Shown: positions 5,614 to 64,000, numbered from the stretch's first letter. The stretch is DNA of 64,000 bases from Minisyncoccota bacterium (GCA_041662525.1 JBAZSF010000004.1:1190-65189), one strand, 5' to 3'. The notes: generated from the sequence alone by a model not told the origin. Numbers and translations are program-made.

Positions 5614-6615
5614 TTATATTTTTCTAGCTTTGTAACCCTCTCCCGCATTTTTAAGATATTCTTCCAATTTTTCTTTAGTGAGGAGGCCTTTTTGGGCGCC
5701 GACTTCTTGAACTACGGACATGGAGTTTATGCCTGCCCAGGTTAGGGCTTCAGACATAGTTTTACCCAAGATGTTTGCAATTACTATGGTAGCAGAAAAA
5801 GCGTCTCCAGCACCAGTGCGTTCATAAGGCGGTTTGGGGTCAGGATAGGGAGGCATAAATAAATATTCTACCCCGTCATATGTATAAGCACCCTTGGGCC
5901 CATCTGTGATCACTACTGTCTTGGGTCCTAAGCTATGAATTTTTTCCAGCAATTCTTTTATCTCTCCACTATCGAGACCTAATATTTTTCTCGCTTCTTC
6001 AACATTGCAGAAAAACATATCTGTATGTTTATAAAGTCTTTGTAATTTTTCTTTTCCTAACTTTATTTCAAACTTACCAGGTTCGAAAGCGAATTTTGTT
6101 TCTGGATGGGCATCTAGATAGTCCGCGATAGTGTAATGAAAAGGAAAAGCAGTTTCATTTACTGAACTAAAATAAATCCATTTTGGTTCATCAAATTCTG
6201 GTAAACTATATGGGTAAATTTCATGTTTGATTAAAATAGTTCTTTCAGCTTCATACCATAAAACAAAATGCTGATTAGTTTTTATTCCTGTATTTATTCT
6301 TATTAGTTCTGTGCCAACTTCATCTTTTTTAAGTGAATCTAAACAATCTGTGCCTGCTTTATCATCACCAATATTGGAGATGAGTTTTGTCTGGAGTCCG
6401 AGCCGAGCAGCTGCGACAGCAACATTTGGAGCATTACCTACTGCGGGGAGAACGTAAACTTCTTCGTATGGAACTTTGTCGGCAAAAGGCAGGCATATTT
6501 TATAGTCTTTATTGTCTGGAGTACCCTCGATGCTTGCATCTTTTAATTTTATAAAAGTATCTATTACGATATCCCCAATTGCTAAGAAATCTATTTTATT
6601 ATTGTTTTCGCTCAT
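5614..6615 (-). CDS. PfkB-family carbohydrate kinase (ribokinase-like)
   Basis: C-terminal …TGAGDAFSA… anion-hole motif. The N-terminal …LAIGDIVIDT… is typical of ribokinase/PfkB kinases. Confidence 0.8.
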   Translation of the reverse strand: MSENNNKIDFLAIGDIVIDTFIKLKDASIEGTPDNKDYKICLPFADKVPYEEVYVLPAVGNAPNVAVAAARLGLQTKLISNIGDDKAGTDCLDSLKKDEVGTELIRINTGIKTNQHFVLWYEAERTILIKHEIYPYSLPEFDEPKWIYFSSVNETAFPFHYTIADYLDAHPETKFAFEPGKFEIKLGKEKLQRLYKHTDMFFCNVEEARKILGLDSGEIKELLEKIHSLGPKTVVITDGPKGAYTYDGVEYLFMPPYPDPKPPYERTGAGDAFSATIVIANILGKTMSEALTWAGINSMSVVQEVGAQKGLLTKEKLEEYLKNAGEGYKARKI

Positions 6616-6645
6616 GGTACTATTCTAACATATTATAAAAAATTT

Positions 6646-8019
6646 ATGAAAAAATTAATTTTAGTTCTTACAGGTTTTGTTTTTTTCTTTAGTTTTAATT
6701 TGGCGCAAGCAAGTGTTGTTATAAATGAAATAAAAATATCACCAACTGAAGATAGATTTATTAAGCTTTACAATCAAGATAATGCTGAAGTTGATTTAAC
6801 TAATTGGTATATTCAAAGAAAAACACAAACTGGAACTAGTTTCACTTCTTTAGTCACAAAGACTTATTTTGAAAATAAAAAAATTAATGCAAATGGTTAT
6901 TTTTTAATTTCTCGTGCTCAAATGGAAAATTCTGAAATTGTTGTTGATAATTTGACACTTACTGAATCAAATGTAATCCAACTTAAAAACTCAAGCGGGG
7001 AAGTAGTAGATAAGGTTTGTTGGGGAGATGTAGATAGCTGTGGAAACCCTAATCCAGATTTAGGTCAAAGTATTCTTGTAACAGATCATGCTTCATCCAC
7101 CGTACCGGCAACTGAAACTTCTTCTTCGAATTCAGACACTGTAGTATCCAATGATGATTCTTCTACAGTACAAATAAAACCTAAAGTAATTGAAAATCCA
7201 GTTATGAAAGTAAAAATTTTAGTTAATACTTTAGCTTTTGCCGGGGAGCCATTTGAAATAAAAACTAATGTTTTAGGGTTTTCTAATGAAAATGTAGTTC
7301 TTGGTAGAGCTTCTTGGAATTTTGGCGACGGTAGTTCATTTGAACAAATAAATAATTTTGAAAAGTTTTCTCATATTTATTATTATCCGGGAGAGTATGT
7401 TTTATTTTTGGAATATTATCAAAATAGTTTTTCAAAAATTCCAGAGGCGACGAGCAAGATGGTAATTAAAGTTCTCCCCACGACTGTTTCTATTTCTAAA
7501 GTAGGGGACGCAAAAGATTTTTTTATAGAACTTTCAAACAATGCTAGTTCGGACATCGATATCTCAAATTGGGTTATTAATGCCAATGGAAAAACTTTTA
7601 TTTTACCAAAAAATAGTGTGATTATGTCTAAAAAACAAATGACAATTTCTGGTAAACTAACTGGATTTACTCTTGGTGATCAAAACAACTTAAAGCTTTA
7701 TTCTGGAACAGGAGAATTGGTGTTTGATTATTTGTCATCTAAAGTTCCCATTGTCGCTAGGCAAGACCTAATAACGACAGCAACTAAGCCAAAAATTTCT
7801 ACAGCGATTCCTCCAGCGGTGAAACCGCTGGAAAATTTAGGCGCTACTGTTTTACAAAGTGATGTCGTAAACAGTGAAAGTTCAAACAATTCAAATACCC
7901 CCATTGTTCCTATTGCTTCTTTTGCTTTTATTGGAGCTGGTGCCGGTGCAGTTTATTTTATTCGTCGAAAAAAAGTTATTCCAAAAGAAGGAGAAGACTT
8001 CGAGATCCTAGATGCATAA
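6646..8019 (+). CDS. Secreted protein with two lamin-tail-like (LTD) domains and a C-terminal TM anchor
   Basis: Signal peptide. VVINEIKISPT…DLTNWYI and a second …FIELSNNASSDIDISNWVI LTD-type motif. The C-terminal GAGAGAVYFIRRKK is a hydrophobic anchor with a basic tail. Confidence 0.65.
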   Translation: MKKLILVLTGFVFFFSFNLAQASVVINEIKISPTEDRFIKLYNQDNAEVDLTNWYIQRKTQTGTSFTSLVTKTYFENKKINANGYFLISRAQMENSEIVVDNLTLTESNVIQLKNSSGEVVDKVCWGDVDSCGNPNPDLGQSILVTDHASSTVPATETSSSNSDTVVSNDDSSTVQIKPKVIENPVMKVKILVNTLAFAGEPFEIKTNVLGFSNENVVLGRASWNFGDGSSFEQINNFEKFSHIYYYPGEYVLFLEYYQNSFSKIPEATSKMVIKVLPTTVSISKVGDAKDFFIELSNNASSDIDISNWVINANGKTFILPKNSVIMSKKQMTISGKLTGFTLGDQNNLKLYSGTGELVFDYLSSKVPIVARQDLITTATKPKISTAIPPAVKPLENLGATVLQSDVVNSESSNNSNTPIVPIASFAFIGAGAGAVYFIRRKKVIPKEGEDFEILDA

Positions 8020-51097: not shown

Positions 51098-52111
51098 ATG
51101 GCATTTATTGACGAAATTAAAATAGAGGCATCAGCAGGACGCGGTGGAGACGGTGTCGTGCGTTGGCGTCAAGAGAAATTTATACCAAAAGGTGGGCCTG
51201 CAGGCGGAGATGCCGGACGTGGTGGGGATTTCTATGTTATTGCTGTGCGTGATATCAATATTCTTTCAAAATATAAAGCAAAAAAAAGCTTCAAAGCTTT
51301 CCGTGGAGAGGACGGTGGAAATAAAAGTTTGCATGGCGCAAATGGTAAAGATTTTTATCTTGAATTACCAATTGGCTCTATCGTTACAAATATAGAGACT
51401 GATGAAGTTTGGCAACTCACAGAAGAAGGGCAGAAATTTATGATTTTAAGAGGTGGTTATGGTGGTTTTGGTAATGAACATTTTAAAAGCTCTACTAACA
51501 CAACTCCCCAAGAATCAAAAGAAGGGCAGGAGGGTGAAAAGGGAAATTTTAAAATAGAGCTAGAGATTTTTGCAGATGTAGGATTTGTCGGTCTTCCGAA
51601 TGCAGGGAAAACTTCTTTATTGAATTCCTTAACTAATGCAGAAGCGAGAGTCGGGGATTATGCTTTTACTACTCTCGATCCAAATTTGGGAGAATTTTAC
51701 GGTTATATTATTGCTGATATTCCAGGAATCATAGAAGGAGCATCAGAGGGTAAGGGTCTCGGTGTAAAATTCTTGCGACATATTAAACGTACAAAAATGC
51801 TCGCGCACCTAGTGTCTTTTGAGAATCTATCTAAGGGTTCGACTGGTATGATGAAGGTTTATAAAGAAATTCGCAAAGAGTTAGAAAAATATGATAAAAA
51901 ATTAGGTTTAGGTGAAAACGGATTGTCTTCTAAAAAAGAAATATTAATTTTAACAAAAAGTGATTTTATCGATGATAGTAAAATTATTGAAAGGGAAATA
52001 AAAAAATTCGAAAAACTTGGAAAAAAAGTTTTTGTCCTGTCTTTGTTTGATGATAAAATGGTAAAAAAATTCAGAGATGGGTTGGTAAAAATTTTAAAGT
52101 CTTCATCATAA
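51098..52111 (+). CDS. obg: GTPase Obg
   Basis: Obg fold with Gly-rich repeats (GRGGDGVV…GGPAGGDAGRGGD). G1 GLPNAGKTS, G3 DIPG. The longest ORF starts at 51071. Confidence 0.9.
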   Translation: MAFIDEIKIEASAGRGGDGVVRWRQEKFIPKGGPAGGDAGRGGDFYVIAVRDINILSKYKAKKSFKAFRGEDGGNKSLHGANGKDFYLELPIGSIVTNIETDEVWQLTEEGQKFMILRGGYGGFGNEHFKSSTNTTPQESKEGQEGEKGNFKIELEIFADVGFVGLPNAGKTSLLNSLTNAEARVGDYAFTTLDPNLGEFYGYIIADIPGIIEGASEGKGLGVKFLRHIKRTKMLAHLVSFENLSKGSTGMMKVYKEIRKELEKYDKKLGLGENGLSSKKEILILTKSDFIDDSKIIEREIKKFEKLGKKVFVLSLFDDKMVKKFRDGLVKILKSSS

Positions 52112-52115
52112 TTAT

Positions 52116-52146
52116 AAAAAGCCGGACAATCTGTCCGGCTTTTTAT
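52116..52146. terminator. Bidirectional Rho-independent terminator
   Basis: aaaaagccggacaatctgtccggcttttt. Confidence 0.85.
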
Positions 52147-52157
52147 AATTTGTCTAA

Positions 52158-53948
52158 TTAACAACCTACTCCCACTTTCCAAAATTCTATAGCTTGAAGA
52201 ATTAAGGAATTTAAAACATTGCCGATCTTCCATTGACCTATATAAGATAAAATTTCCGCATTACCAATAACACCATCGAGATTTGTGTCAGCTGTAGTTT
52301 GACAAGCAGGGCCGACCGCTGTCACGGTAACTATTGAAGCATTACTAGTTACTGCGTCTGAAGTCGCAGTGATGTTTGTCGTACCAGCAGCTACTGCTGT
52401 TACGAGACCCGTAGCACTCACTGTAGCTACTGCTGTATCAGAAGAATTCCAAGTCATCGCAGGTTGAGTCGCTAGAGCTACACTATTTTGATCTAAAGCA
52501 GAAGCTGATAGTTGAGAAGTACCTGCGACTACTATACTCGCTGTTGTTGGTGTGACTGAAATTGAAGTGAGGACGGGATTTGGGGTAATAGCCACCACAT
52601 TGACAGTCCTGGTAACCGACGTAGCTGGATTACCAGCGGCGTCAGAAACGTTGTAGGTCAAAATGTAACTCCCCAAAGTGGCTGTATCTACTGTACCGGT
52701 GACAATTATGTTGGCAGTGATATTGCCATCCACATCATCAGAAGCAGTGGCTCCTGGATCAGTGAAGACACTTGCTTGAACCACATCCACTGGGTTAGCT
52801 CCAAGTAATATAATGACTGGGAGAGTGGTGTCAGCAGGTGGTGAAACAGCTGTAATAATTATTGTGACTGGAGATGAAACTGGCGCTGATACCATGTCAT
52901 CAACAATTACATTAAAATTATAAGTTCCTGCTATGCTTGGGGTCCATGAAAATGTTCCCATGGCATTAATTGATGATCCAATAGGCGCATTCGCGTCAAG
53001 CGTATACATTAGCATTCCCTGATTTGGATTAGTGGCAATTACATCAAATGTTACTGCTTGCCCAACTGTTCCATTTTGTTGAGGTATTGGGGTTATGACT
53101 GGAGATGCTGCAAAGCTAGCGCTGATCGTATGAGCAATAGTAACGTTGGTGAAGGTGTAAGTCGCAACTGCGCCAACTGAAACTCCGTCCACCAAAACAT
53201 CCGCTACTACGAAATTAGTATTCGGAGTTATGGTGTAAGCTCTATTTGCTCCATGATTAACCGACGTCACTCCAAGAGGAGAAATTGTTCCGTTGGCGCC
53301 CGTCGAAGATGTAATGTTGTAAGTATTAATCGCGAAACTTGCATTGATCGTGTGAGTAGTTGTTACATTATTAAATGTATAATTTAAAACTGCTCCGACT
53401 GAAGATCCGTCAACTAAAACATTAGCTATATGATAACCGGTGTTTGGTGTAATTGTATAACTTTGACTTGATCCGGAGTTAACAGGGGTTGTTCCAGCTG
53501 GAGTAACTGTCCCTCCCGCGGTACTTGCAACTGAAACTATATTATGAGTTGTTGCTGTAGATGATATTACCAAATTTACGTTTGTTAACGGTTCAACAAC
53601 AAATGATCTGGTTACGTTTGTACTAAATGCTCCAAATGTCGCGTTTAATTGAATTTGATCTCCAGCAACGGTACAGATATTTAGGTTGCTTGTGTCGATC
53701 TGGTAAAATCCTCCCAAAGAGGTTACGACTGATAGTGCGGGGGATCCATTTGTAACGTCAGTAAGCGTGACAGTGGCATTATCAGTCGCTATACCATTAA
53801 ATGTAACTGTCCCATAAAATGTATTTAGCGGACATCCTTGAGCCGCAATAGCCGGGGTAGGCGAGATGAAAGCAAATTGCATTATCGCGGAAGCTACTAT
53901 CAAACTTACTATTTTTTTTATTGTATTTTTTGAGATATTTATGTTCAT
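52158..53948 (-). CDS. Secreted surface protein with Big_2 Ig-like domains and a Cys-flanked dockerin-like C-terminal module
   Basis: Signal peptide. Big_2-type segment (VLTSISVTPTTASIVVAGTSQLSA…). C-terminal CQTTADTNLDGVIGNAEILSYIGQWKIGNVLNSLILQAIEFWKVGVGC, almost identical to the C-terminus of the 60637-62598 protein. Confidence 0.6.
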   Translation of the reverse strand: MNINISKNTIKKIVSLIVASAIMQFAFISPTPAIAAQGCPLNTFYGTVTFNGIATDNATVTLTDVTNGSPALSVVTSLGGFYQIDTSNLNICTVAGDQIQLNATFGAFSTNVTRSFVVEPLTNVNLVISSTATTHNIVSVASTAGGTVTPAGTTPVNSGSSQSYTITPNTGYHIANVLVDGSSVGAVLNYTFNNVTTTHTINASFAINTYNITSSTGANGTISPLGVTSVNHGANRAYTITPNTNFVVADVLVDGVSVGAVATYTFTNVTIAHTISASFAASPVITPIPQQNGTVGQAVTFDVIATNPNQGMLMYTLDANAPIGSSINAMGTFSWTPSIAGTYNFNVIVDDMVSAPVSSPVTIIITAVSPPADTTLPVIILLGANPVDVVQASVFTDPGATASDDVDGNITANIIVTGTVDTATLGSYILTYNVSDAAGNPATSVTRTVNVVAITPNPVLTSISVTPTTASIVVAGTSQLSASALDQNSVALATQPAMTWNSSDTAVATVSATGLVTAVAAGTTNITATSDAVTSNASIVTVTAVGPACQTTADTNLDGVIGNAEILSYIGQWKIGNVLNSLILQAIEFWKVGVGC

Positions 53949-53999
53949 TTTTTTTATTAATTTTTTAATTGGTAAATATTTTTCGACTTTAAAATATTT

Positions 54000-56900
54000 T
54001 TATGGTCGGTGAATGAATATTCCATCACCTTGATTGATAATGAAATCATTCAATGGAAACCCGATTATATGGCTACTATATTGCTGTATTGCCGAGTCCC
54101 ATTTGGTAACAACATCAGTACCGGCAAGTGAAGCGCCAAAAGTTTCTGCCGTGGTTGATATTGCGCTGACCCATCCAAGAAGATTCCAGCCAGTTATGGG
54201 ATTATAAGTGGCTTGAGCTGGAGATCCTTGGAATACAAATGGACTAGCTGCTGGAACATTCACAAAGAAACCATCACCTATAGTAAGATTAAAGTTATTC
54301 AATGGAAATCCAACTATATGACTGCTGTATTTCTGTGTCAGAGAATCCCATTTTACAACGACCGTTGCACCGACTGTTTGTCCAAAGTTTTCCGCTGTTA
54401 ATGTCATAGGAGTCCCCTGAGCATCAAGCGGAGTTGCGGGTAGTGTAACTAAATTCCATCCATCGTTTAGTGAAAGCATATAACTTCCAGGAGGAAGATC
54501 TCCCGCTGTTACATTGGCAGTGTTGGAATATGTTGAATTAGCAGTTGCGGTAGGGAAGCCAATTGAGGGATCCGCGTATATTTGTGTATCGCCAACAACA
54601 TTATTGGCAAAAACTCTATAATAATATGTCTGCCCCGGTTGGATAGAATTATCCAAGTATGCGGTTGCATTAACCGGAGATGTGTAAGTTATCAATCCGC
54701 TCGTAAATCCAGAGTTGGTAGCTTTTTGAATTGTAAATCCAGTTTCACTTAATGAATTATCATTCCAATTTAACTGCACTGCATTAGAAGCAAAATTTGC
54801 TGTTAAATTTGAAGGAGCTTCCGGTGGAGTGGCGAATAAAACTGCATGCATCATATCCATTTCTTCATGCGCTAAGAGATGGCAGTGATAAACATATTCC
54901 CATCCATAGTTTACATAATGATTGTTTACTGTGACATTGTTTCCATTAGGATCTTTGAGTCCGCCAGGTGGTAGCATTAACGGCGCACCCTCAGGCAATG
55001 TGGGATCAATCAAGCGCACACTATTGGGAACTGGGAATGGTTGAGTTGGAGCAAATGCTCTGAAAGCAACTATGGTGTCTTGTAAAGGATTCACTCTAAA
55101 TGTTTCCTTCCACCCGAGTTCGTTGGCATCAGGCGGTCTTATAGCACCATCCCAGGCGACTCTGTTTATAAGCTGAGCATTAAACAGGTGGGTATGGATG
55201 GTATGAGTGTCTACACCATTGTGTGTAATTTTCCAGATTTGGGTGCCGTCATCAAGAGATCCTATCGGTGTTCCGTATACAGAGCCTTTGACGATTTCAA
55301 CTGGCGGAGAGGCAAAACCGGAAAGAATGAGTAATTGTCTGTTAACTTGTGATGCTGGAAGTTCAAGCCCGAGAAATCCACTCATTCTTCCGTATTCCGA
55401 ATCGAATGCTTCGCCCTGCTCATCTTGGATAGCTTTTGTTTGGAAAGGTATAGTGACATTATCACCGGCGAGAGTATTGAATGTTTTTGATGCGTCATGA
55501 ATACTGGCATAATTATCTGTTGTAATATTAGAATTATAAGCTGAATTATATGCAGTTTGCGGTATGATAACTTCATCCTGAGACACTTCGAAAACTCCGC
55601 GTTTTGTACCAGGTCCTTTGGCAAATACCGCTTCTAGTGCGCCTAGATTGTATGCAGTCGCTGGAGTGGTAGGCGCCACTCTGATTTGCATTACAGTTCT
55701 TATATTAGGACCGTAACCGGCTTGGGTTGTCGGAGCTCCGCCTATGTCTGTCAAATCCGGGTCTCCGGTATGATAATCATAACGAGCATCAGCGGCTGGA
55801 AATGCTGCCGGAGCATCGTTGTATAAAATAATTGTTTTGCCCGCGTACTGTGAAAAATCAACAATTACATCCGCTCGTTCAGCCGTACCAAGGATAAGAG
55901 TTCCTTTGTTAACTAATCCCATGTCAAAGTTTGTCGGGTCCATATTCCAGTCAACTGGTTGATTGGGCAATACTACCGGTGCTGGCAAGAATCCTCCTTC
56001 GGTTCCAATTTGAATAAATGTCGGACCTGCGGTTGTCGGATCAGGCACCCCTCCTTCTCGTCCATCTTTTGGCCAATCTTCCGGGAATCCGGGAGTAGAG
56101 ACAGCTGGTACCATTTTTATTTCCGTGTTTGTTCTGCCATCAGGGGTAATAATTGTCGGATCTGCAACATAGAACTGTAAATTAAGGAAACGATCATCTG
56201 CGGCATTTAAAATTCTAAATCTGTACGCTTTTGGGTCTACGTTCATATACGGATACACTGTTCCATTGACAATGGGAGTGTCCATAAAAGCTTCCATCGC
56301 CATAGACTCATTTGGTGTTCCAGGCATTTGAGCTGGTTCCCATGGTGCACCTACTGGATCATAATATGGATTTGGAAGCGGGCCTTGAGTTACCCCAGTT
56401 GTTGGTGGCCAAAACCATGGACCATAGTGCCATCTCCCAAAAGCATTCATTCCGCTGGGATCCGCAGGATTTTGGTTTGGCATATAAACGTGTGGGTACC
56501 AAAGATCGCCATCTTGGGGAACTCCTGGTACTGCTGAATCCCACGTTGGATCTTGCATCGCAAGAGTACTGGTATCAATAAATGTTCTATCTTGAATAAT
56601 TAACGGGATACCAATATCCGGAAGAACTTTCACCAACCCAGGGTTAACTCCGGAATCATTTGTTCCATTAATTAAATCTTGTTCTACTTGGTCGGTAATT
56701 AAATATCCAGCCGCTTCTCCTGCATAAACATTTAAACGGGTAATTCCAAAAGAATGATCATGATAGAACATCAATCTAGCACTTTGTTGGTTGTTATAGT
56801 AAAAAGTAAGTGAACCATCTCCAGGGTTATTTGTTGCTCCTGGGGTTGGCGCTGTAATTTGACCGACTGTGTCTGCGACTACACTGCCATTTACAAACCA

Positions 56901-57923
56901 CATGTCGGGAACATACTCAACACTCACACCTTTCGGATAAGATGTAGTTTCACCCGCCGGAGTAGTCCATTGATGAGGAGTTCCATCACTTATCCATGGA
57001 ACAAATCCTCCATGAAGGTGCAATGTTGCCCTATTTTCTTTGTACTCTTCTTTCATTCCAGGCATTCCCGGCATATCCAATGGACCCATACCGGCACCCA
57101 TTACTGATTTATCAACTGGCAAAAAAAGTTCTCCACCTGCTCCAGTTGGAAGTTTATTTGTAAATTTAATTCTTACAGCACGATCACGATTAGAAAGAAT
57201 TAGCGGACCAAGATAATGAATCGGATCCGGCGCAATCGTATTCTGGCTGTTGCCATCAGTACCTGAATTTACCTGTACATAACCGCGTAATTTTGTTGCC
57301 GGAAGATCGGAATGCATCTTTTCCGTATATTCCCTTAATTCAATTTCATAATAATCAGCTCCCGGATAAGTAATTGTATCCGGATGCGCTACTGGGATAT
57401 ATTGTCCAAGATTGTTGGCATTAGTTGAACCTAATCCTGGCAAAGAATCCACGAATTTTTTTATTCCTCCAGTTAATGTCGAGTATCCACTCCCACCATT
57501 GGTGATTGTAATTTCAGTAATGACACCGGCAGTTGTTGAAGCTGTTGCATTTGCTCCGGTTCCAGTAAGACTTGTGATTGCAACTATTGGAGAAATATAA
57601 TTTGTTCCTCCGTTAATAATTGATATTGCGGTAACAGCCCCATTAGTAATTGTTGCTGTTGCGATAGCTCCTGTAGCTCCGCTTGTTGTGTTTGAGTCTG
57701 TGATTGTTACAACAGTCGGTTCACCGACTGGCATAGGACTATTTGCCCAGTTTGGATAAGGACCAAAATAATGTGGAATCTCTCCGGTGTTGGGAATCGT
57801 CATCGCCATAGCAACTGTCGATTTTGCATATTTGATATTTTCAATCGGCAAAGCAACAAAAGAAAAAATAAAAGACAAAATTATAAAAATATTTCCTAAA
57901 TTTCTTAAATAATTATTTTTCAT
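54000..57923 (-). CDS. Giant secreted multicopper oxidase (laccase/CotA-like, three cupredoxin domains) with FN3 and tandem C-terminal repeat domains
   Basis: Signal peptide. All four MCO copper-ligand motifs are present: HLHGG, YHDHS, HTIHTHLF, HCHLLAHEEMDMM. An FN3-like segment and two about 90-aa C-terminal repeats (…KWDS…QYSSHI(V/I)GFPLN…GDG(F/I)F…). Confidence 0.75.
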   Translation of the reverse strand: MKNNYLRNLGNIFIILSFIFSFVALPIENIKYAKSTVAMAMTIPNTGEIPHYFGPYPNWANSPMPVGEPTVVTITDSNTTSGATGAIATATITNGAVTAISIINGGTNYISPIVAITSLTGTGANATASTTAGVITEITITNGGSGYSTLTGGIKKFVDSLPGLGSTNANNLGQYIPVAHPDTITYPGADYYEIELREYTEKMHSDLPATKLRGYVQVNSGTDGNSQNTIAPDPIHYLGPLILSNRDRAVRIKFTNKLPTGAGGELFLPVDKSVMGAGMGPLDMPGMPGMKEEYKENRATLHLHGGFVPWISDGTPHQWTTPAGETTSYPKGVSVEYVPDMWFVNGSVVADTVGQITAPTPGATNNPGDGSLTFYYNNQQSARLMFYHDHSFGITRLNVYAGEAAGYLITDQVEQDLINGTNDSGVNPGLVKVLPDIGIPLIIQDRTFIDTSTLAMQDPTWDSAVPGVPQDGDLWYPHVYMPNQNPADPSGMNAFGRWHYGPWFWPPTTGVTQGPLPNPYYDPVGAPWEPAQMPGTPNESMAMEAFMDTPIVNGTVYPYMNVDPKAYRFRILNAADDRFLNLQFYVADPTIITPDGRTNTEIKMVPAVSTPGFPEDWPKDGREGGVPDPTTAGPTFIQIGTEGGFLPAPVVLPNQPVDWNMDPTNFDMGLVNKGTLILGTAERADVIVDFSQYAGKTIILYNDAPAAFPAADARYDYHTGDPDLTDIGGAPTTQAGYGPNIRTVMQIRVAPTTPATAYNLGALEAVFAKGPGTKRGVFEVSQDEVIIPQTAYNSAYNSNITTDNYASIHDASKTFNTLAGDNVTIPFQTKAIQDEQGEAFDSEYGRMSGFLGLELPASQVNRQLLILSGFASPPVEIVKGSVYGTPIGSLDDGTQIWKITHNGVDTHTIHTHLFNAQLINRVAWDGAIRPPDANELGWKETFRVNPLQDTIVAFRAFAPTQPFPVPNSVRLIDPTLPEGAPLMLPPGGLKDPNGNNVTVNNHYVNYGWEYVYHCHLLAHEEMDMMHAVLFATPPEAPSNLTANFASNAVQLNWNDNSLSETGFTIQKATNSGFTSGLITYTSPVNATAYLDNSIQPGQTYYYRVFANNVVGDTQIYADPSIGFPTATANSTYSNTANVTAGDLPPGSYMLSLNDGWNLVTLPATPLDAQGTPMTLTAENFGQTVGATVVVKWDSLTQKYSSHIVGFPLNNFNLTIGDGFFVNVPAASPFVFQGSPAQATYNPITGWNLLGWVSAISTTAETFGASLAGTDVVTKWDSAIQQYSSHIIGFPLNDFIINQGDGIFIHRP

Positions 57924-58086
57924 ATATCTCTATATTAATTATTAATAATCGATTACTTTTTAGTATTAAAAAACTTACAAACTTAATAATAGTCAAACGA
58001 TAATAGCTGAAGTTAAATTTGACATTAAAGATTTTAAGGGCATTTTGATTTTTTAAAAAAATATTATTATTTCTGAGCAAAAAAAA

Positions 58087-58095
58087 GGGGGGGGG
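58087..58095. repeat. G9/C9 homopolymer in the MCO promoter region
   Basis: The only long G/C homopolymer seen in this AT-rich window. About 165 bp upstream of the MCO start, just downstream of the terminator of the preceding gene. Confidence 0.6.
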
Positions 58096-58114
58096 AGTCC
58101 TTGCTTAAAATAAC

Positions 58115-58146
58115 AAAAAACCGGAAGACTAGTCCGGTTTTTGTTA
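58115..58146. terminator. Rho-independent terminator after the PG-binding surface protein gene
   Basis: aaaaaaccggaagactagtccggtttttgtt. Confidence 0.8.
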
Positions 58147-58179
58147 TAACGTTTTTTTATAATTAAGACAGTTAATAAT

Positions 58180-60591
58180 TTATCTATTAAGTGCCGCGCG
58201 AGTGAGAGGTCCTACGATCCCATCGCCAATTAATCCATTCACTATTTGGAATTTAATGAGAGCCCCACCGGTTATTCTTCCAAATTTTCCATCAACCACT
58301 AGTGGACCATATTTGGTGTTGTTTAAGAACTTCTGAAGTTCCATAACTTCGTTTCCTATTGAGCCATTCCTAAGGAAAAGAGTAAAGAAGAATCTTTCAT
58401 CTCCGAGCACTTGACTTGTTCCAGTATTTCCAACACAAGATTGACCAGTAGTTACACTAAATCCAGTTGTTCTATTGCCACATCCAGGAATTGGTCCAGT
58501 ATTCCCAACACAAGATTGACCAGTAGTTACACTAAATCCAGTTGTTCTATCGCCACATCCAGGAATTGGTCCTCCTGTTCCAGTATTTCCAACACAAGAT
58601 TGACCAGTAGTTACACTAAATCCAGTTGCCCTATTGTCACATCCTGCAATTGGTCCTGTTGAAGCACCTAATACTTGGCCAATAAGGGGTCTTATAAAAC
58701 TACCGCCACCGCCTCCTCCACTAGATTGAGGCACTGCTGTCACCGTCACCAAAGTCGTTCCAGTCACTGCTCCACTAGTTGCGGTAACTGTGGTAGTTCC
58801 TACTGCGACTGCAGTAAACATTCCAGTGGTAGCATTAATCGTTCCGACTGCTAGATTAGAACTTGTCCAAGTGACAGTCGCTACAAATGGTGCTCCGTTT
58901 TGATCCAAAGTGGTAGCGGTCATTTGCTGAGTGTTTCCTACTACTACGGATGGGTTAGCTGGGTTAACAGTGATAGAAGTTAAAACTGGAACAGCCGTCA
59001 CCGTCACCAAAGTCGTTCCAGTCACTGCTCCACTAGTTGCGGTAACTGTGGTAGTTCCTACTGCGACTGCAGTAAACATTCCAGTGGTAGCATTAATCGT
59101 TCCGACTGCTGGATTGGAGCTTGTCCAAGAAACAGTGGCTGCGATTGGTGCTCCGTTTTGATCTAAAGTAGTTGCTGTCATTTGCTGAGTATTCCCAACC
59201 GTGACAGAAGGAGTAGTGGGGGTGACGTTGATGGTGGTGAGGACGGGGGTTGGGGCTGCCGTTACCGTCACTGACGTACCACCTAAAATTGGTACTTCTG
59301 TTACACCATTAGAATCAAAAGCGAATGTGCCAGAAAATGTACTTACTCCCGAAGCTGTTCCTGGGATAGCAAGTGTGTATTGTCTTGTACCTGAAGCAGC
59401 TCCAGTTAATTCAAGCCATCGAATGTGTCCACCAGCGATGGTTCCTGTACCAGAGAGGTCTGTGGCGACCCAACCAGCAGGGAATATTTCATCGATGAGA
59501 ACAGTTCCGTTTGCATCGGCTGGATCAACAGCAGAAGTCAAAGTTACGGTGATGACTGTTCCGGCAGTTGGAGTAGCATTACTGAAACTGCGGGTGACGG
59601 TGGAATTTACCACCACTGGTGCTGTCACTGTCACCAAAGTAGTCCCTGTCACTGCGCCACTTGTAGCGGTGATAGTCGTGGTTCCTACTGCGACTGCAGT
59701 AAACATTCCAGTGGTAGCATTAATCGTTCCGACTGCTGGATTGGAGCTTGTCCAAGAAACAGTGGCTGCGATTGGTGCTCCGTTTTGATCTAAAGTAGTT
59801 GCGGTCATTTGCTGAGTATTCCCAACCGTGACAGAAGGAGTAGCGGGGGTGACGTTGATGGTGGTGAGGACGGGGGTTGCTGTCACTGTAATTACTGAAA
59901 TATTACTGGTCACTGCCCCTGAGGTCGCTGTAATATTTGTTGTACCAACAGAAACCGCAGTCACTAAACCAGTCGCACTAACTGTGGCTACTGCGGGATT
60001 GGATGAGTTCCAAGTCATCACAGGTTGAGGGGACATTGCTACCGCATTTTGATCTAAAGCAGAAGCACTTAATTGAGAAGTGCCTGCGACTACCAAACTA
60101 GCTGTTGTTGGAGTTAAGTTTATTGAAGTAAGTACTGGCGTAACAATTACTGCTGTCACTGTCACCGATGTATCACCAAGAATTGGTACTTCCGTTGCAC
60201 CATTAGAGTTAAAAGCGAATGTGCCAGAAAATGTACTTACTCCCGAAGCTGTTCCTGGGATAGCAAGTGTGTATTGTCTTGTACCTGAAGCAGCTCCAGT
60301 TAATTCAAGCCATCGAATGTGTCCACCAGCGATGGTTCCTGTACCAGAGAGGTCTGTGGCGACCCAACCAGCAGGGAATATTTCATCGATGAGAACAGTT
60401 CCGTTTGCATCGGCTGGATCAACAGCAGAAGTCAAAGTTACGGTGATGACTGTTCCGGCAGTTGGAGTAGCATTACTGAAACTGCGGGTGACGGTGGAGG
60501 CGTCAGCGGCCTGAGCACCAATTCCCACAAAGAAAGCAATTACTGCCACTACCATTCCTATTTTTTTAATTATTGATTTTAAGTATTTCAT
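58180..60591 (-). CDS. Surface scaffold-like protein: duplicated novel ~110-aa domain, four Big_2 domains, three Cys-repeats and a C-terminal peptidoglycan-binding (PG_binding_1-like) domain
   Basis: Signal peptide. Novel domain (STVTRSFSNATPTAG…GTFAF) present twice. Repeated Big_2 domains. Gly-rich linker. 3x GC(D/G)xR(A/T)TGFSVTTGQSCVGNTG. C-terminal …KFLNN…VDGKFGRITGGALIKFQ…GLIGDGIVGPLT…. Confidence 0.65.
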   Translation of the reverse strand: MKYLKSIIKKIGMVVAVIAFFVGIGAQAADASTVTRSFSNATPTAGTVITVTLTSAVDPADANGTVLIDEIFPAGWVATDLSGTGTIAGGHIRWLELTGAASGTRQYTLAIPGTASGVSTFSGTFAFNSNGATEVPILGDTSVTVTAVIVTPVLTSINLTPTTASLVVAGTSQLSASALDQNAVAMSPQPVMTWNSSNPAVATVSATGLVTAVSVGTTNITATSGAVTSNISVITVTATPVLTTINVTPATPSVTVGNTQQMTATTLDQNGAPIAATVSWTSSNPAVGTINATTGMFTAVAVGTTTITATSGAVTGTTLVTVTAPVVVNSTVTRSFSNATPTAGTVITVTLTSAVDPADANGTVLIDEIFPAGWVATDLSGTGTIAGGHIRWLELTGAASGTRQYTLAIPGTASGVSTFSGTFAFDSNGVTEVPILGGTSVTVTAAPTPVLTTINVTPTTPSVTVGNTQQMTATTLDQNGAPIAATVSWTSSNPAVGTINATTGMFTAVAVGTTTVTATSGAVTGTTLVTVTAVPVLTSITVNPANPSVVVGNTQQMTATTLDQNGAPFVATVTWTSSNLAVGTINATTGMFTAVAVGTTTVTATSGAVTGTTLVTVTAVPQSSGGGGGGSFIRPLIGQVLGASTGPIAGCDNRATGFSVTTGQSCVGNTGTGGPIPGCGDRTTGFSVTTGQSCVGNTGPIPGCGNRTTGFSVTTGQSCVGNTGTSQVLGDERFFFTLFLRNGSIGNEVMELQKFLNNTKYGPLVVDGKFGRITGGALIKFQIVNGLIGDGIVGPLTRAALNR

Positions 60592-60636
60592 ATTTTTTAT
60601 TTTATTATTTTTAATTTTGATAATTTTTCGACACTT

Positions 60637-62598
60637 TTAACACCCTACTCCCACTTTCCAAAATCCTATGGCTTGAAGAATTAAGGAATTTAAAACATTA
60701 CCAAGTTTCCATTGACCTATGTAAGATAAAATTTCTACGTTGCCAATAATTCCATCGAGATTAGTGTCAGCTGCAGTTTGGCAAACTGCAGCAGTGGTAA
60801 CAGTAATTGCTGAAGTTCCCTCGACCGTAATTACTCCATCAATTGCAGTAGCTGTAATCGTGACAGTGCCAGGAGCGATCGCAGTAACTAATCCTGAACC
60901 ATCAACAGTGGCAATAGCATTATCACCTGAAGACCAATTTATTGTTGGTTGAGGAACTAAAGCATTTCCAAATTGATCCAAGGCTGATGCTGAAAGTTGT
61001 TGAGTTAATCCTGTATTTATCGAAGCAGTGGTTGGAGTGACATTTAACCCAGATAAAATAGTGACAGCGAGAGAATGATCGATCGTTGTGGAATTACTTC
61101 CATCAGTAGCTGTAATAGGGATATTAAATAATCCTGCTCTGTCCAAATTTGGTAGAATAAGCGACCAGGTACCGTCTGTTTCAGATCCAGCATTTCTAAT
61201 CATGTTTACTATGTTTGGAGTAGGAATTATTTGCCCACGAATTTCACCGTTTGAAAATAGAGTGGTGTGTATATTTACATAAGTTCTCCCAGCTAAAATT
61301 TCTGCTTCTATTTCTTCAGGATAATTCCAGGTTCCATTTGCTGGAAGTGTAGTTCCTAGATCAAAAGTAATTGCTGAATTTTGACCCAAAGCTCCGTTTG
61401 GAGGAACAACAGATCCATGAATATGCATTCCGGTGATTGATCCACCTTGCAAACCCGAAGCACTAATATTATAAGTTAATGTATTTGCATTTGTATCAAT
61501 AGTAAATGTTCCGGATCCTGTTGCTGTACTAGTGGTTGCAGGAACTTCTTGTGTTTTATTAAGAGTAGCAGTAAAGGTGTTGCTTAGTGCCCCCAAATCA
61601 GCGGTAACTCCAATCACCCTCAGATCATCAGTAACGTTTGCGCTTAAAACAACATTATTAGAACCAAGTGGTACAGAAGCAGGTGCAGTAGAAACTATGG
61701 TTGGAGCGATGGTGTCAACAACCGCGATACGTCCAGTAACAGTAAATAAATTTTCTTGAATGAAACCGGCACCAGCAAAACTTGTTGCGGGGCCCTCAAT
61801 TCTTATAAAGTTTTGTCCAACAGGGCTACCAGTAATAGCGTGCGGTATATTTGGATTACCAATATATCTTTTGGTTGGATTCTGAGCGTTGACCAAGAGA
61901 GGATCCGACAAAGCTGGATTTAGATTGAACGTGTCCCAAGTCAAGAACGGTCCGATACCACTGTTAAGAGTAAGAATAGGATCACAAATGGCTATACCTG
62001 GAACACCAGCACAACCGATATCAGACGAATCATTGATTTCTGGAGCTCCCGGATCTATTACGTCCACGACATAAGTTTTTGTACCGAAAGGATGTCTGAT
62101 GGTGTATGTTCCGGGCACATCTACATCGTATCTGTGTCTGATGCGACCAAAAATAGATTCACTACCCTCAACCGTTCCACCGAGATAAGCAACCTCTAAA
62201 GCTAAAATGGTCTTACTGACAGAGCCGGCAGGATTAACTGGGATAGCGTCAGCCGTCCAGTAGAATCCTTCGCCCGAAAATCCGAGTTCTGCGGAAAAAT
62301 CATTTCCACCCTGAATCGGCCCTGAGATACCGAAACCGTCGATGGCTTCCATGATCTCAATCGCAAGACCGTTCTGGTCCATAAACCATGCAGGTAAACT
62401 CTTACCAATACCTGCAGTTACAATAGGACCAGCCATTCCACCAGGCACGAATGCCGCTTGGGAGACGTTCGCGCTAAACAATAAAGCAAACACAAAAACA
62501 CCAGTCAAAAGAGATGCGCTATATTTATATTTAACCTTTTTATTCATTCTCGCTATTAATAAAACGTATAATAATTTTTGTATGATTGTTTTTTTCAT
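60637..62598 (-). CDS. Secreted surface protein with CHRD-like and Big_2 domains and the shared dockerin-like C-terminal module
   Basis: Signal peptide. CHRD-like segment (…LTYNISASGLQGGSITGMHIHG…). Big_2. C-terminal CQTAADTNLDGIIGNVEILSYIGQWKLGNVLNSLILQAIGFWKVGVGC. Confidence 0.6.
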   Translation of the reverse strand: MKKTIIQKLLYVLLIARMNKKVKYKYSASLLTGVFVFALLFSANVSQAAFVPGGMAGPIVTAGIGKSLPAWFMDQNGLAIEIMEAIDGFGISGPIQGGNDFSAELGFSGEGFYWTADAIPVNPAGSVSKTILALEVAYLGGTVEGSESIFGRIRHRYDVDVPGTYTIRHPFGTKTYVVDVIDPGAPEINDSSDIGCAGVPGIAICDPILTLNSGIGPFLTWDTFNLNPALSDPLLVNAQNPTKRYIGNPNIPHAITGSPVGQNFIRIEGPATSFAGAGFIQENLFTVTGRIAVVDTIAPTIVSTAPASVPLGSNNVVLSANVTDDLRVIGVTADLGALSNTFTATLNKTQEVPATTSTATGSGTFTIDTNANTLTYNISASGLQGGSITGMHIHGSVVPPNGALGQNSAITFDLGTTLPANGTWNYPEEIEAEILAGRTYVNIHTTLFSNGEIRGQIIPTPNIVNMIRNAGSETDGTWSLILPNLDRAGLFNIPITATDGSNSTTIDHSLAVTILSGLNVTPTTASINTGLTQQLSASALDQFGNALVPQPTINWSSGDNAIATVDGSGLVTAIAPGTVTITATAIDGVITVEGTSAITVTTAAVCQTAADTNLDGIIGNVEILSYIGQWKLGNVLNSLILQAIGFWKVGVGC

Positions 62599-62759
62599 AT
62601 TTTATTTAATATTTATAATATTAGTAATAATCAAACAATAATAGATAAAGTTAAATTTAATATTAACAATATAAAGGACATAAAAAACGTCAAGGACATT
62701 TTGATTAATCCTTCCTAAAGTATTACTATGTATAGTACTGATCGGATGTTTTTATTTAT

Positions 62760-64000
62760 ATGAAAAAATTTAACTTTTTTAAGGAATATAATAATATTTT
62801 TCCAATAACCTTGGTAGATTTATTAGTTACGATTATTTTTTTGTTTGTTTTATATTTAACTAGTTTTATTAGTTATGAGGTTTTTCATTCGTTATCAGAA
62901 TTCTTTAGTATAATAATTGCTTTTGGGATTTTTACTGTAGCTTGGAATGCTCGAAATTTTTTTGATAATCATTTTCTTTTCTTTTTGAGTATTGTATATG
63001 TTTTTATATCTTTGATTGATATTGCTCACACTTTGGCTTATAAGGGATTAAATTTATTTTATTCTTTTGATCCTACTTCTAATCTAGCCACTCAGCTTTG
63101 GGTGGCAGCCAGGTATCTACAGGCCTTATCTTTGCTTTTTGCTCCTATTTTTTTAAGTAAAAAAATAAAAAATATCAGTTTAGTTTTTTTAGGTTATTTT
63201 TGGATTATTATTTTCATTTTTATTTTAATTTTTTATCTAAAAATTTTTCCAACTGCTTATGTCGAAGGAACAGGATTAACTTTGTTTAAGATATGGAGCG
63301 AATATATAATATCCTTGATTTTAGTTGCTGCGGGTTTCTTTCTTTATAAAAAAAGAAAAATTCTTGATACTAAAGTCTTTCTCCTCGTGCTATTTTCGAT
63401 TATTTTTACAATTGCTTCGGAATTGTCTTTTACGACGTATTTCGGTGTATATGATTTTTCAAATATGTTGGGGCATCTATTTAAAATAATATCTTTTTTG
63501 TTGTTGTATAAAACAATTATGGAAACCGGATTAAAGAATCCTCTTTCTTATATTTTCAGAAGTATGGAACAAAATGCAGAAATTCTAAGAGCTTCAGAGT
63601 CTAAATATCGCCTACAGGCAAAGATAGCAACAGAGGAATCTTTGGAAAGAAAAAGAATAGATAAAGAGTTGATTAAAAAAAATAAGACACTGGAAAAAGC
63701 GGTTGAAAATCTTAAGATATTTCAACTAGCAATGGATAATGCTTTTTCTCATATCATTATTACTGATGAAAATGGCTCTGTTGTCTATGCCAATAAAGCA
63801 GTGGAAGATATCACTGGTTTTAGCAAAGAAGAAATCATAGGTAAAAATCCATCCATTTGGGGAAAACAAATGCCTACTTCTTTTTACCAGAATTTATGGA
63901 AAACCATAAAAGAAGATAAAAAATCTTTTGTAGGGGAAATACTTAATAAAAGAAAGGACGGTAGTTTGTATCAGGCAGATGTGAGAGTTTCTCCTATATT
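62760..64000 (+). CDS. Membrane sensor protein with an N-terminal multi-TM domain and PAS domain(s); 3' end outside the window
   Basis: ORF open to the window end. Not in the supplied track. About 7 predicted TM helices, then …IIITDENGSVVYANKAVEDITGFSKEEIIGKNPSIWG… PAS motif. Confidence 0.6.
   Translation, partial: MKKFNFFKEYNNIFPITLVDLLVTIIFLFVLYLTSFISYEVFHSLSEFFSIIIAFGIFTVAWNARNFFDNHFLFFLSIVYVFISLIDIAHTLAYKGLNLFYSFDPTSNLATQLWVAARYLQALSLLFAPIFLSKKIKNISLVFLGYFWIIIFIFILIFYLKIFPTAYVEGTGLTLFKIWSEYIISLILVAAGFFLYKKRKILDTKVFLLVLFSIIFTIASELSFTTYFGVYDFSNMLGHLFKIISFLLLYKTIMETGLKNPLSYIFRSMEQNAEILRASESKYRLQAKIATEESLERKRIDKELIKKNKTLEKAVENLKIFQLAMDNAFSHIIITDENGSVVYANKAVEDITGFSKEEIIGKNPSIWGKQMPTSFYQNLWKTIKEDKKSFVGEILNKRKDGSLYQADVRVSPI

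Follow-up and report, generated by a model that had tools for sequence, protein, structure and literature searches.

A putative docking pair in surface proteins of a Paceibacterota bacterium: a 49-residue C-terminal module and the 110-residue domain encoded next to it

Four surface-protein genes on the minus strand of a 64,000-nucleotide stretch from Minisyncoccota bacterium (GCA_041662525.1 JBAZSF010000004.1:1190-65189; this whole stretch is called the window) probably encode a system of non-covalent surface display, in which the tail of a secreted cargo protein would bind the distal domain of a stalk anchored in the envelope. The tail is a 49-residue C-terminal module that defines a protein family, and the distal domain, of about 110 residues, belongs to a recognizable fold class. 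The genes carrying the two elements are paired, in a conserved order, in bacteria of the candidate phyla radiation (CPR) and in archaea. We infer that direct tail-to-domain binding causes this pairing, and that it depends on calcium, because the genes are paired, the partners are anchored, some proteins resemble adaptors, and the module combines a calcium loop with an internal duplication.

The block spans positions 52158-62598 and consists of four intact open reading frames (ORFs) in a row: p1 (596 residues, 52158..53948), p2 (1307 residues, 54000..57923), p3 (803 residues, 58180..60591) and p4 (653 residues, 60637..62598). These and the other features of the window lie on the minus strand unless stated otherwise. 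A first-pass annotation, made from the sequence of the window, had listed the same four co-oriented genes, and none of them is a pseudogene; it called the proteins giant, and they are merely large. It had also supposed a CPR-like genome. An exact look-up at NCBI matched three of the four proteins to MFA6257886, -887 and -889; these belong to a metagenome-assembled genome (MAG) of a Candidatus Paceibacterota bacterium and lie on a contig of 82.7 kb, and by these protein names the CPR attribution is right. Signal peptides of p1-p4 and of the family members described below were judged by reading N-termini. The guanine-plus-cytosine (GC) content is 0.40-0.45 in the surface-protein block (window 52000-62000) versus approximately 0.31-0.37 in most flanking housekeeping genes; a composition rich in Thr, Ala, Gly and Val, or acquisition from elsewhere, could account for this.

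That two of the proteins end in an almost identical, Cys-flanked module had been noticed from the start. These are p1 (module at 52161..52307, placed by alignment to the p4 module and by family search) and p4 (60640..60786, VCQTAADTNLDGIIGNVEILSYIGQWKLGNVLNSLILQAIGFWKVGVGC), and the two 49-residue copies share 44 residues, their DNA being 89% identical over 148 nt. Of the codons that differ, 10 are synonymous and 6 non-synonymous, which points to purifying selection and not to very recent copying. This bears on the simplest explanation of the common modules, namely that they reflect mere recombination or gene conversion among fast-evolving mosaic surface genes, with no assembly behind them. 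DNA repetition inside the locus is indeed extensive (77-94% identity among Big_2 units, 96% between the 110-residue copies), and the GC content of the block exceeds that of its surroundings. Such a process leaves unexplained the codon pattern, with only 6 non-synonymous differences, the invariant residues kept over some 70 divergent module clusters, and a pairing kept across two domains of life; of all the explanations considered here it is the one we already disfavour most and to which we give the least credence.

The module is unknown to NCBIfam, and to Pfam when searched as an isolated module, even at E<=10. Word-index homology searches with the module and with a single 110-residue domain returned no match, not even their own protein, and an alignment-based search of this kind with the 110-residue domain returned two proteins only; such searches lack the sensitivity that short domains require. 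When phmmer was run exhaustively against 1.84 billion cluster representatives, 79 proteins matched at E<=1e-3, of which roughly 70 are clear relatives. These are 56-1231 residues long, begin with signal-peptide-like N-termini, and in nearly all of them the match reaches the last residue. The passengers comprise more than 20 kinds of domain, for example Big_2, CHRD, CBM96, beta-helix/NosD, Laminin_G_3, HYR, S8 peptidase, multicopper oxidase, metallophosphatase and Pfam Cohesin, so that the module, as dockerins do, forms a terminal tag on varied secreted proteins. One passenger, an S8 peptidase (MFA6257393, P0009), is encoded in the same MAG as the window and carries a module that is 82% identical.

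The family consensus is C-x-T-x-A-D-T-N-x-D-G-x-I-S-x-x-E-L-L-x-Y-I-x-x-W-K-x-G-x-V-x-x-x-x-L-L-x-A-I-G-F-W-K-x-G-x-G-C, with C, D, E, both W and one G invariant. The family profile aligns to the 12-residue EF-hand loops and exiting helix of calmodulin and SCaMC (E 1e-7 to 1e-5). The loop has the residues of an EF-hand: its first position is always D and its twelfth always E, and in a 45-sequence alignment (A2) G at position 6 is present in 86% and I at position 8 in 80%. The two halves of the module align to one another over 19 columns (hhalign P 1.5e-5), which makes the module an internal duplication that has kept the calcium loop in its first copy only: the D-x-N-x-D-G-x-I-x-x-x-E loop is confined to the first half, and the second half lacks the acidic ligands. 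AlphaFold2, run on the 45-sequence alignment, predicted a loop followed by two helices (predicted local distance difference test, pLDDT, 91.6). The model has a single loop and no entering helix, and hence not the helix-loop-helix of a full EF-hand. With one EF-hand-type loop and an internal 19-residue duplication, the module looks like a mini-dockerin, and its bracketing Cys presumably form a disulfide.

In its strict confinement to the last residue, and in closing with a Cys, the tail is reminiscent of C-terminal sorting signals, and a fold search with its model singled out no solved structure convincingly. The module might accordingly be a cap for folding, stability or export quality, or a signal for a processing or sorting enzyme, the 110-residue protein being part of maturation. 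To this we give little credence. The module has neither the hydrophobic helix nor the basic tail of sortase, exosortase or archaeosortase signals, no NCBIfam sorting-signal model matches p1 or p4, the partners are long anchored stalks and not enzymes, and the loci share no conserved gene of protease- or sortase-like type.

The candidate receptor for the module lies in p3, the putative anchored scaffold, delineated by its ORF, by Pfam and by DNA repeats. Its order is signal peptide, 110-residue domain, two Big_2, a second 110-residue domain, three Big_2, three Cys repeats and PG_binding_1. The first-pass annotation had described this protein well, as one with a peptidoglycan-binding domain and two novel domains of about 110 residues. 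Pfam gave PG_binding_1 (E 3.8e-11; residues 746-801, 58189..58356), a peptidoglycan anchor, and four Big_2 matches, and the two copies of the novel domain, at residues 31-146 (60154..60501) and 329-444 (59260..59607), are 96% identical in DNA. The three tandem Cys repeats of 25-28 residues (GPIPGCxxRTTGFSVTTGQSCVGNTG; 58417..58659; DNA repeat family D4, 93%), between the stalk and PG_binding_1, had no Pfam match even at E<=10; a poly-Gly tract stands at this place in relatives.

The 110-residue domain (approximately 115 residues) had no Pfam match above threshold, the best being DUF11 at E 0.095, and the Pfam search gave no Cohesin match for it. AlphaFold2 with 11 homologues predicted an all-beta sandwich (pLDDT 92.6, predicted template modelling score 0.85), a fold class that, going by the model, takes in cohesin without singling it out. 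We also considered an isopeptide-forming CnaB domain. Pilin CnaB-type domains, including CLIPPER (9ifr; 10.1101/2025.04.25.650565), typically form an intramolecular isopeptide, and this candidate was rejected: the p3 domain contains no lysine, which makes an intramolecular Lys-Asn/Asp isopeptide bond impossible.

The evidence that ties the two elements together is the arrangement of their genes. Loci were gathered by the module alone, without reference to the 110-residue domain, and then scanned in six frames with local hidden Markov models of both elements. They came from two GTDB genomes, from 20 metagenome stretches and from the contigs of individual family members. The metagenome stretches were found by a degenerate DNA pattern for A-[IV]-x-[FY]-W-K-x-G-x-G-C-stop; the scan of GTDB contigs used an over-strict pattern, AIGFWKVG, which gave two true loci and three false Flexivirga matches. 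L001/L020 were left out of the independent count; they are the same strain as the window, since p4 differs by 1 nt.

Among the 22 distinct module genes, downstream sequence was usable for 21, and 18 of these are directly followed, on the same strand, by a gene for a protein that has a signal peptide and then at once the 110-residue domain. Failure of the two elements to co-occur in other genomes had been named beforehand as grounds for giving up the idea of an assembly; they adjoin, in CPR bacteria and in archaea. The partner gene starts -38 to +180 nt from the stop of the module gene, its 110-residue domain begins at residue 21-55 (E 1e-15 to 1e-41), and in L004 two cargo genes stand ahead of one partner. 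Outside the pairing stand p1, the S8 peptidase and the variant module families of L030 and L031. Within the loci the 110-residue domain is confined to the partner position or to in-cis fusions, the one exception being L026, where a further partner gene follows directly downstream; p3 has the domain's only copies in the 64-kb window.

Only the junction from module to domain is constant across loci; cargo, stalk and anchor all vary. The cargo includes multicopper oxidases (L010, L016, L024), CBM96, HYR, beta-helix/NosD, MopE-like, CHRD and Ig-only proteins, and the partner stalks are built of Big_2, cadherin-like, PKD or LTD domains. As in scaffolds that bear cohesins, the partners are anchored to the envelope, through PG_binding_1 (p3 of the window, L005) or a C-terminal hydrophobic transmembrane helix with a basic tail (six loci); others end in undefined domains. 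The bacterial loci belong to Paceibacterota, Kaiserbacteria, Moranbacteria and a contig with PBP1A, and the archaeal ones to a contig with RpoK, Rrp42 and an archaeal pilin and to another with archaeal-type LeuRS and Trm5b. Across these loci, identity to the window is 41-61% for the modules and 30-58% for the partner domains. At the archaeal loci L013 (1399-5498) and L021 (2754-8649), where the cargo is a small CBM96 protein, the gaps between cargo and partner are -1 and +1 nt, which suggests that the two are translationally coupled.

Both elements also occur within one protein (P0038, P0052, P0063, P0073, P0075, P0085; L012/L027; L024), and such proteins are possible adaptor chains, judging from their architecture. 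In two family members Pfam Cohesin domains are combined with the module, which then sits in the place that the type II dockerin has in CipA. P0060 (L031 121-2221) has two Pfam Cohesin domains and the module, and is followed by a PG_binding_1 protein without the 110-residue domain; L031 either breaks the pairing or uses a different receptor. In L029 a small ORF (6347-6751, minus strand) matching Pfam Dockerin_1 (E 4.6e-5) lies directly downstream of a 110-residue-domain stalk gene, so that canonical dockerin-type sequences coexist with the pair described here. Another ORF of L029 (5638-6363), taken by eye for a cohesin, had no Pfam support. Finally, L030 (1-18320, ENA ERZ25039495) holds nine tandem genes of approximately 750-900 residues (beta-helix, Laminin_G_3, CBM9) that end in a module variant (...WKSGC), with no 110-residue domain within 8 kb of the array; this contig, of 1.84 Mb, is above the size of a typical genome of CPR bacteria or of DPANN (Diapherotrites, Parvarchaeota, Aenigmarchaeota, Nanoarchaeota and Nanohaloarchaeota) archaea.

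Several observations weigh against docking. Module proteins without an adjoining partner exist, namely p1, the S8 peptidase P0009 and the products of the nine tandem L030 genes, and the module gene of L031 precedes a peptidoglycan-binding protein that lacks the 110-residue domain. Many of the loci come from few related groundwater-type metagenomes. Pairwise distances among modules and among partner domains correlate (r 0.57, 19 pairs, permutation p<0.0005), a result that counts in favour of docking but is confounded by common ancestry, which alone could produce it. For the model of the 110-residue domain, pilin/CnaB-type and macroglobulin domains are as good a match as cohesins; the distant sequence relatives of the domain match NPCBM_assoc and DUF11, and its identification as a divergent Pfam cohesin was rejected at the level of sequence (hhalign against the Pfam-positive cohesin of P0060, probability 0.13%). 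The module, for its part, has one calcium loop where a dockerin has two, and this loop ends in Glu like a classical EF-hand. Dockerin_1 matched neither p1, nor p4, nor the isolated module at E<=10, and it is not among the 25 commonest of the 58 families matched by 71 module-family members.

Part of this would suit the main rival account, in which p3-type proteins are ordinary fibrillar adhesins: the 110-residue domain would bind a ligand of the host or the environment, the upstream genes would encode co-expressed secreted partners, and the module would bind a cell-wall or S-layer glycan, a host surface or mineral-bound calcium, the pairing then reflecting a shared task and not docking. With its signal peptide, distal domain, repeated Ig-like stalk and cell anchor, p3 has the standard layout of such adhesins (PMC8286594), an architecture that says nothing on the ligand. 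The orphan module proteins and the nine-gene L030 array indicate that the tail can work away from a partner, and NPCBM_assoc and DUF11, matched by relatives of the 110-residue domain, are found in glycan-facing surface proteins. What the adhesin account leaves unexplained is that the cargo tail and the N-terminal domain of the partner are the sole constants, in a fixed order and -38 to +180 nt apart, in bacteria and archaea, and that both elements are chained in one protein (L024). To our knowledge, fibrillar adhesins do not come with an upstream gene that bears a matching tail. We consider this account unlikely, with a chance well above that of the two other rivals.

Docking remains the simplest reading, and one that we judge somewhat more likely than not; the system would then work as follows. 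Its first element would be the 49-residue module, which would serve secreted proteins as an address tag at their C-terminus: within a Cys-Cys bracket lie one EF-hand-type calcium loop and then two helices, which stem from the duplication of a 19-residue unit whose end is W-K-x-G. Its second element would be the beta-sandwich of about 110 residues right after the signal peptide of a stalk, whose other end is fixed to the envelope. In the window, p3 would be the scaffold, held on peptidoglycan by PG_binding_1, with five Big_2 as a stalk and two near-identical 110-residue docking sites. The CHRD protein p4 and the Ig-rich protein p1 would be clients, attached through their tails in a manner that probably depends on calcium, and the S8 protease encoded elsewhere in the same genome is perhaps a third. 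The oxidase p2 would be a regular client in related genomes, and here it would be attached differently, perhaps through p1, or released. The initial proposal that peptidoglycan-anchored p3 displays the other proteins is favoured by the conserved pairing and the anchored partners, except for the oxidase: p2 has no module, and its display by p3 draws support from its module-bearing relatives and not directly.

As first annotated, p2 is a secreted multicopper oxidase. It matched Cu-oxidase_2 in Pfam, a PhsA-like model in NCBIfam, and in the PDB the CotA laccase (E 3e-27) and also bilirubin oxidase. The sequence shows each of the four copper-ligand motifs (HLHG, HDH, HTIHTH and HCHLLAHEEMDMM), and these His-rich motifs, with the cupredoxin domains, make it a three-domain multicopper oxidase. 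N-terminal repeats are followed by the oxidase core, a weak fn3 (54585-54818; E 4e-4, below the Pfam threshold) and two C-terminal repeats of about 85 residues. Big_2 domains had been attributed to all four proteins; Pfam found them in p1, p3 and p4 only, and p2 has this sub-threshold fn3 and no Big_2. The two uncurated repeats (GWNL...KWDS..QxYSSHIxGFPLNxF..GDG.F; 54003..54509; DNA repeat D6, self-matches E 4e-14) had no credible Pfam or PDB match. Over approximately 1000 residues p2 is 53-55% identical to the oxidases of L010 and L016, which end in fn3 plus the module and precede 110-residue-domain stalk proteins; the two repeats of p2 stand where these homologues have the module, and may be an alternative attachment tag. 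A likeness between them and the C-terminal domain of the L004 stalk was dropped, as phmmer gave no support at E<=1e-2.

Among the candidate clients, p1 looks like a non-enzymatic, Ig-rich cargo protein or an adaptor. Its ORF and Pfam matches give the order signal peptide, N-terminal domain of about 95 residues, two InlB-B-repeat-like units, Ig-like domains, Bact_surface_Ig-like, Big_2 and module. The N-terminal domain (PHxFYG.V..NG..A..G; residues ~36-130, 53664-53843) was also seen by eye in P0053, P0063 and a 432-residue protein of L004; phmmer gave a weak link to P0026 only. The stalk repeats of p1 are 54-67% identical to those of the partners of module-type oxidases; the N-terminal domain differs from theirs, and the C-terminus is the module. 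In L033, a relative without p4-p3 at that site, the adjacency of p2 and p1 is kept. Speculatively, the p2 C-terminal repeats and the p1 N-terminal domain could be a second, co-replaced docking pair, with p1 as an adaptor between oxidase and p3, because p1 shares its repeats with the oxidase partners, has a new N-terminal domain, and remains next to p2 in L033. In p4, the signal peptide is followed by an N-terminal domain of about 290 residues, CHRD (61228-61575, E 2e-22), Big_2 (60817-61047, E 3e-12) and the module. The N-terminal domain recurs in the module-bearing proteins P0027, P0022, P0019, P0036, P0028, P0050 and P0032, and has no sequence relatives in the PDB.

A terminator-like hairpin with a 10 bp stem and a T-run (58116..58142), 38 nt past the p3 stop, separates p4-p3 from p2-p1, and from the sequence these look like two transcription units. 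Each is preceded by a copy of a 74-nt element, repeat D7, at 62608..62681 upstream of p4 and at 57970..58043 upstream of p2, the two being 77% identical. In a promoter scan the p4 copy overlapped partly a TTGACG-16-TATTGT match (62693-62666) and wholly a second match (62666-62638). The shared element suggests common regulation of both units, and is possibly a regulatory site, perhaps for the adjoining two-component system. A gene for a MASE3-PAS sensor histidine kinase starts on the plus strand, divergent from p4 (62763..64000; NCBIfam MASE3_PAS_HK, E 1.9e-68), and runs past the window end, so that the window includes only its 5' part. Such a kinase also flanks the cassette in L001, L015, L016, L024, L032 and L033, usually with an OmpR-type response regulator and sometimes with small cupredoxin genes.

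Taken at its widest, the proposal is that the 49-residue single-loop mini-dockerin tail and the 110-residue receptor sandwich form a previously undescribed two-part docking system. The unit of inheritance and exchange would be a junction cassette made of the tail, a short spacer, a signal peptide and the receptor domain, and CPR bacteria and DPANN-like archaea would have it in common. These organisms, all ultra-small, would arm their surfaces in this way with oxidases, proteases, glycan-binding modules and adhesins, at multiple levels through adaptors. The p2 repeats and the p1 N-terminal domain may be a second pair. On this wide form we are evenly divided. Should it hold, the docking pair would explain the organisation of many unannotated large surface proteins in CPR bacteria and DPANN archaea. 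These two groups account for much of microbial diversity and are believed to live in attachment to other cells, and their surface building is little known. The pair would also point to gene exchange between the two groups, give a direct means of locating enzymes displayed on cell surfaces, such as the multicopper oxidase, and offer protein engineering a tiny orthogonal binding pair (49 plus 110 residues) beside cohesin-dockerin and SpyTag-type tools.

A full-text literature search on dockerin or cohesin with CPR and DPANN names returned no description of the module/110-residue pair. Nothing cellulosome-like had been expected in a CPR genome by the first-pass annotation, which was too strong: a dockerin-domain protein is mentioned in passing as essential in a Saccharibacterium (PMC10633639), and Pfam Cohesin and Dockerin_1 matches occur in the related loci. 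As regards the cargo, p2 shares its copper motifs with CotA laccase and bilirubin oxidase, and differs from them by its 1307 residues, long N-terminal repeats, weak fn3 and C-terminal repeats. The module resembles EF-hands of the calmodulin type in its loop, D-x-[ND]-x-[DNS]-G-x-I-x-x-x-E, and exiting helix, and differs, on the predicted structure, in having neither entering helix nor paired loop, and in its extracellular, C-terminal and presumably disulfide-bracketed setting.

The closest functional parallel is cohesin-dockerin with an anchoring scaffoldin, in its cellulosomal types I-III and in its non-cellulosomal forms of Clostridium perfringens and Archaeoglobus fulgidus; SdbA and OlpB are anchoring scaffoldins fixed to the cell wall. 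Like a dockerin, the module is small, helical, apparently calcium-binding and internally duplicated, and is placed at the C-terminus of many secreted proteins. As in cohesin-dockerin, the putative partner is on a scaffold fixed to the cell wall, there are adaptors with both elements, and the genes for cargo and scaffold are clustered. Unlike a dockerin, the module measures 49 residues versus approximately 60-70, has two helices and a Cys-Cys bracket that ends in the terminal residue, and does not consist of two tandem loop-helix segments of about 22 residues, its second half being devoid of acidic ligands. The partner domain, of about 110 residues versus approximately 140, is unlike cohesin also in having no Pfam Cohesin match. 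Unlike cohesin-dockerin genes, those described here come as co-oriented cassettes of two genes, one-to-one, in CPR bacteria and small archaea, with cargo that is non-cellulolytic. The proposed docking pair, perhaps widespread, may be an undescribed cousin of cohesin-dockerin.

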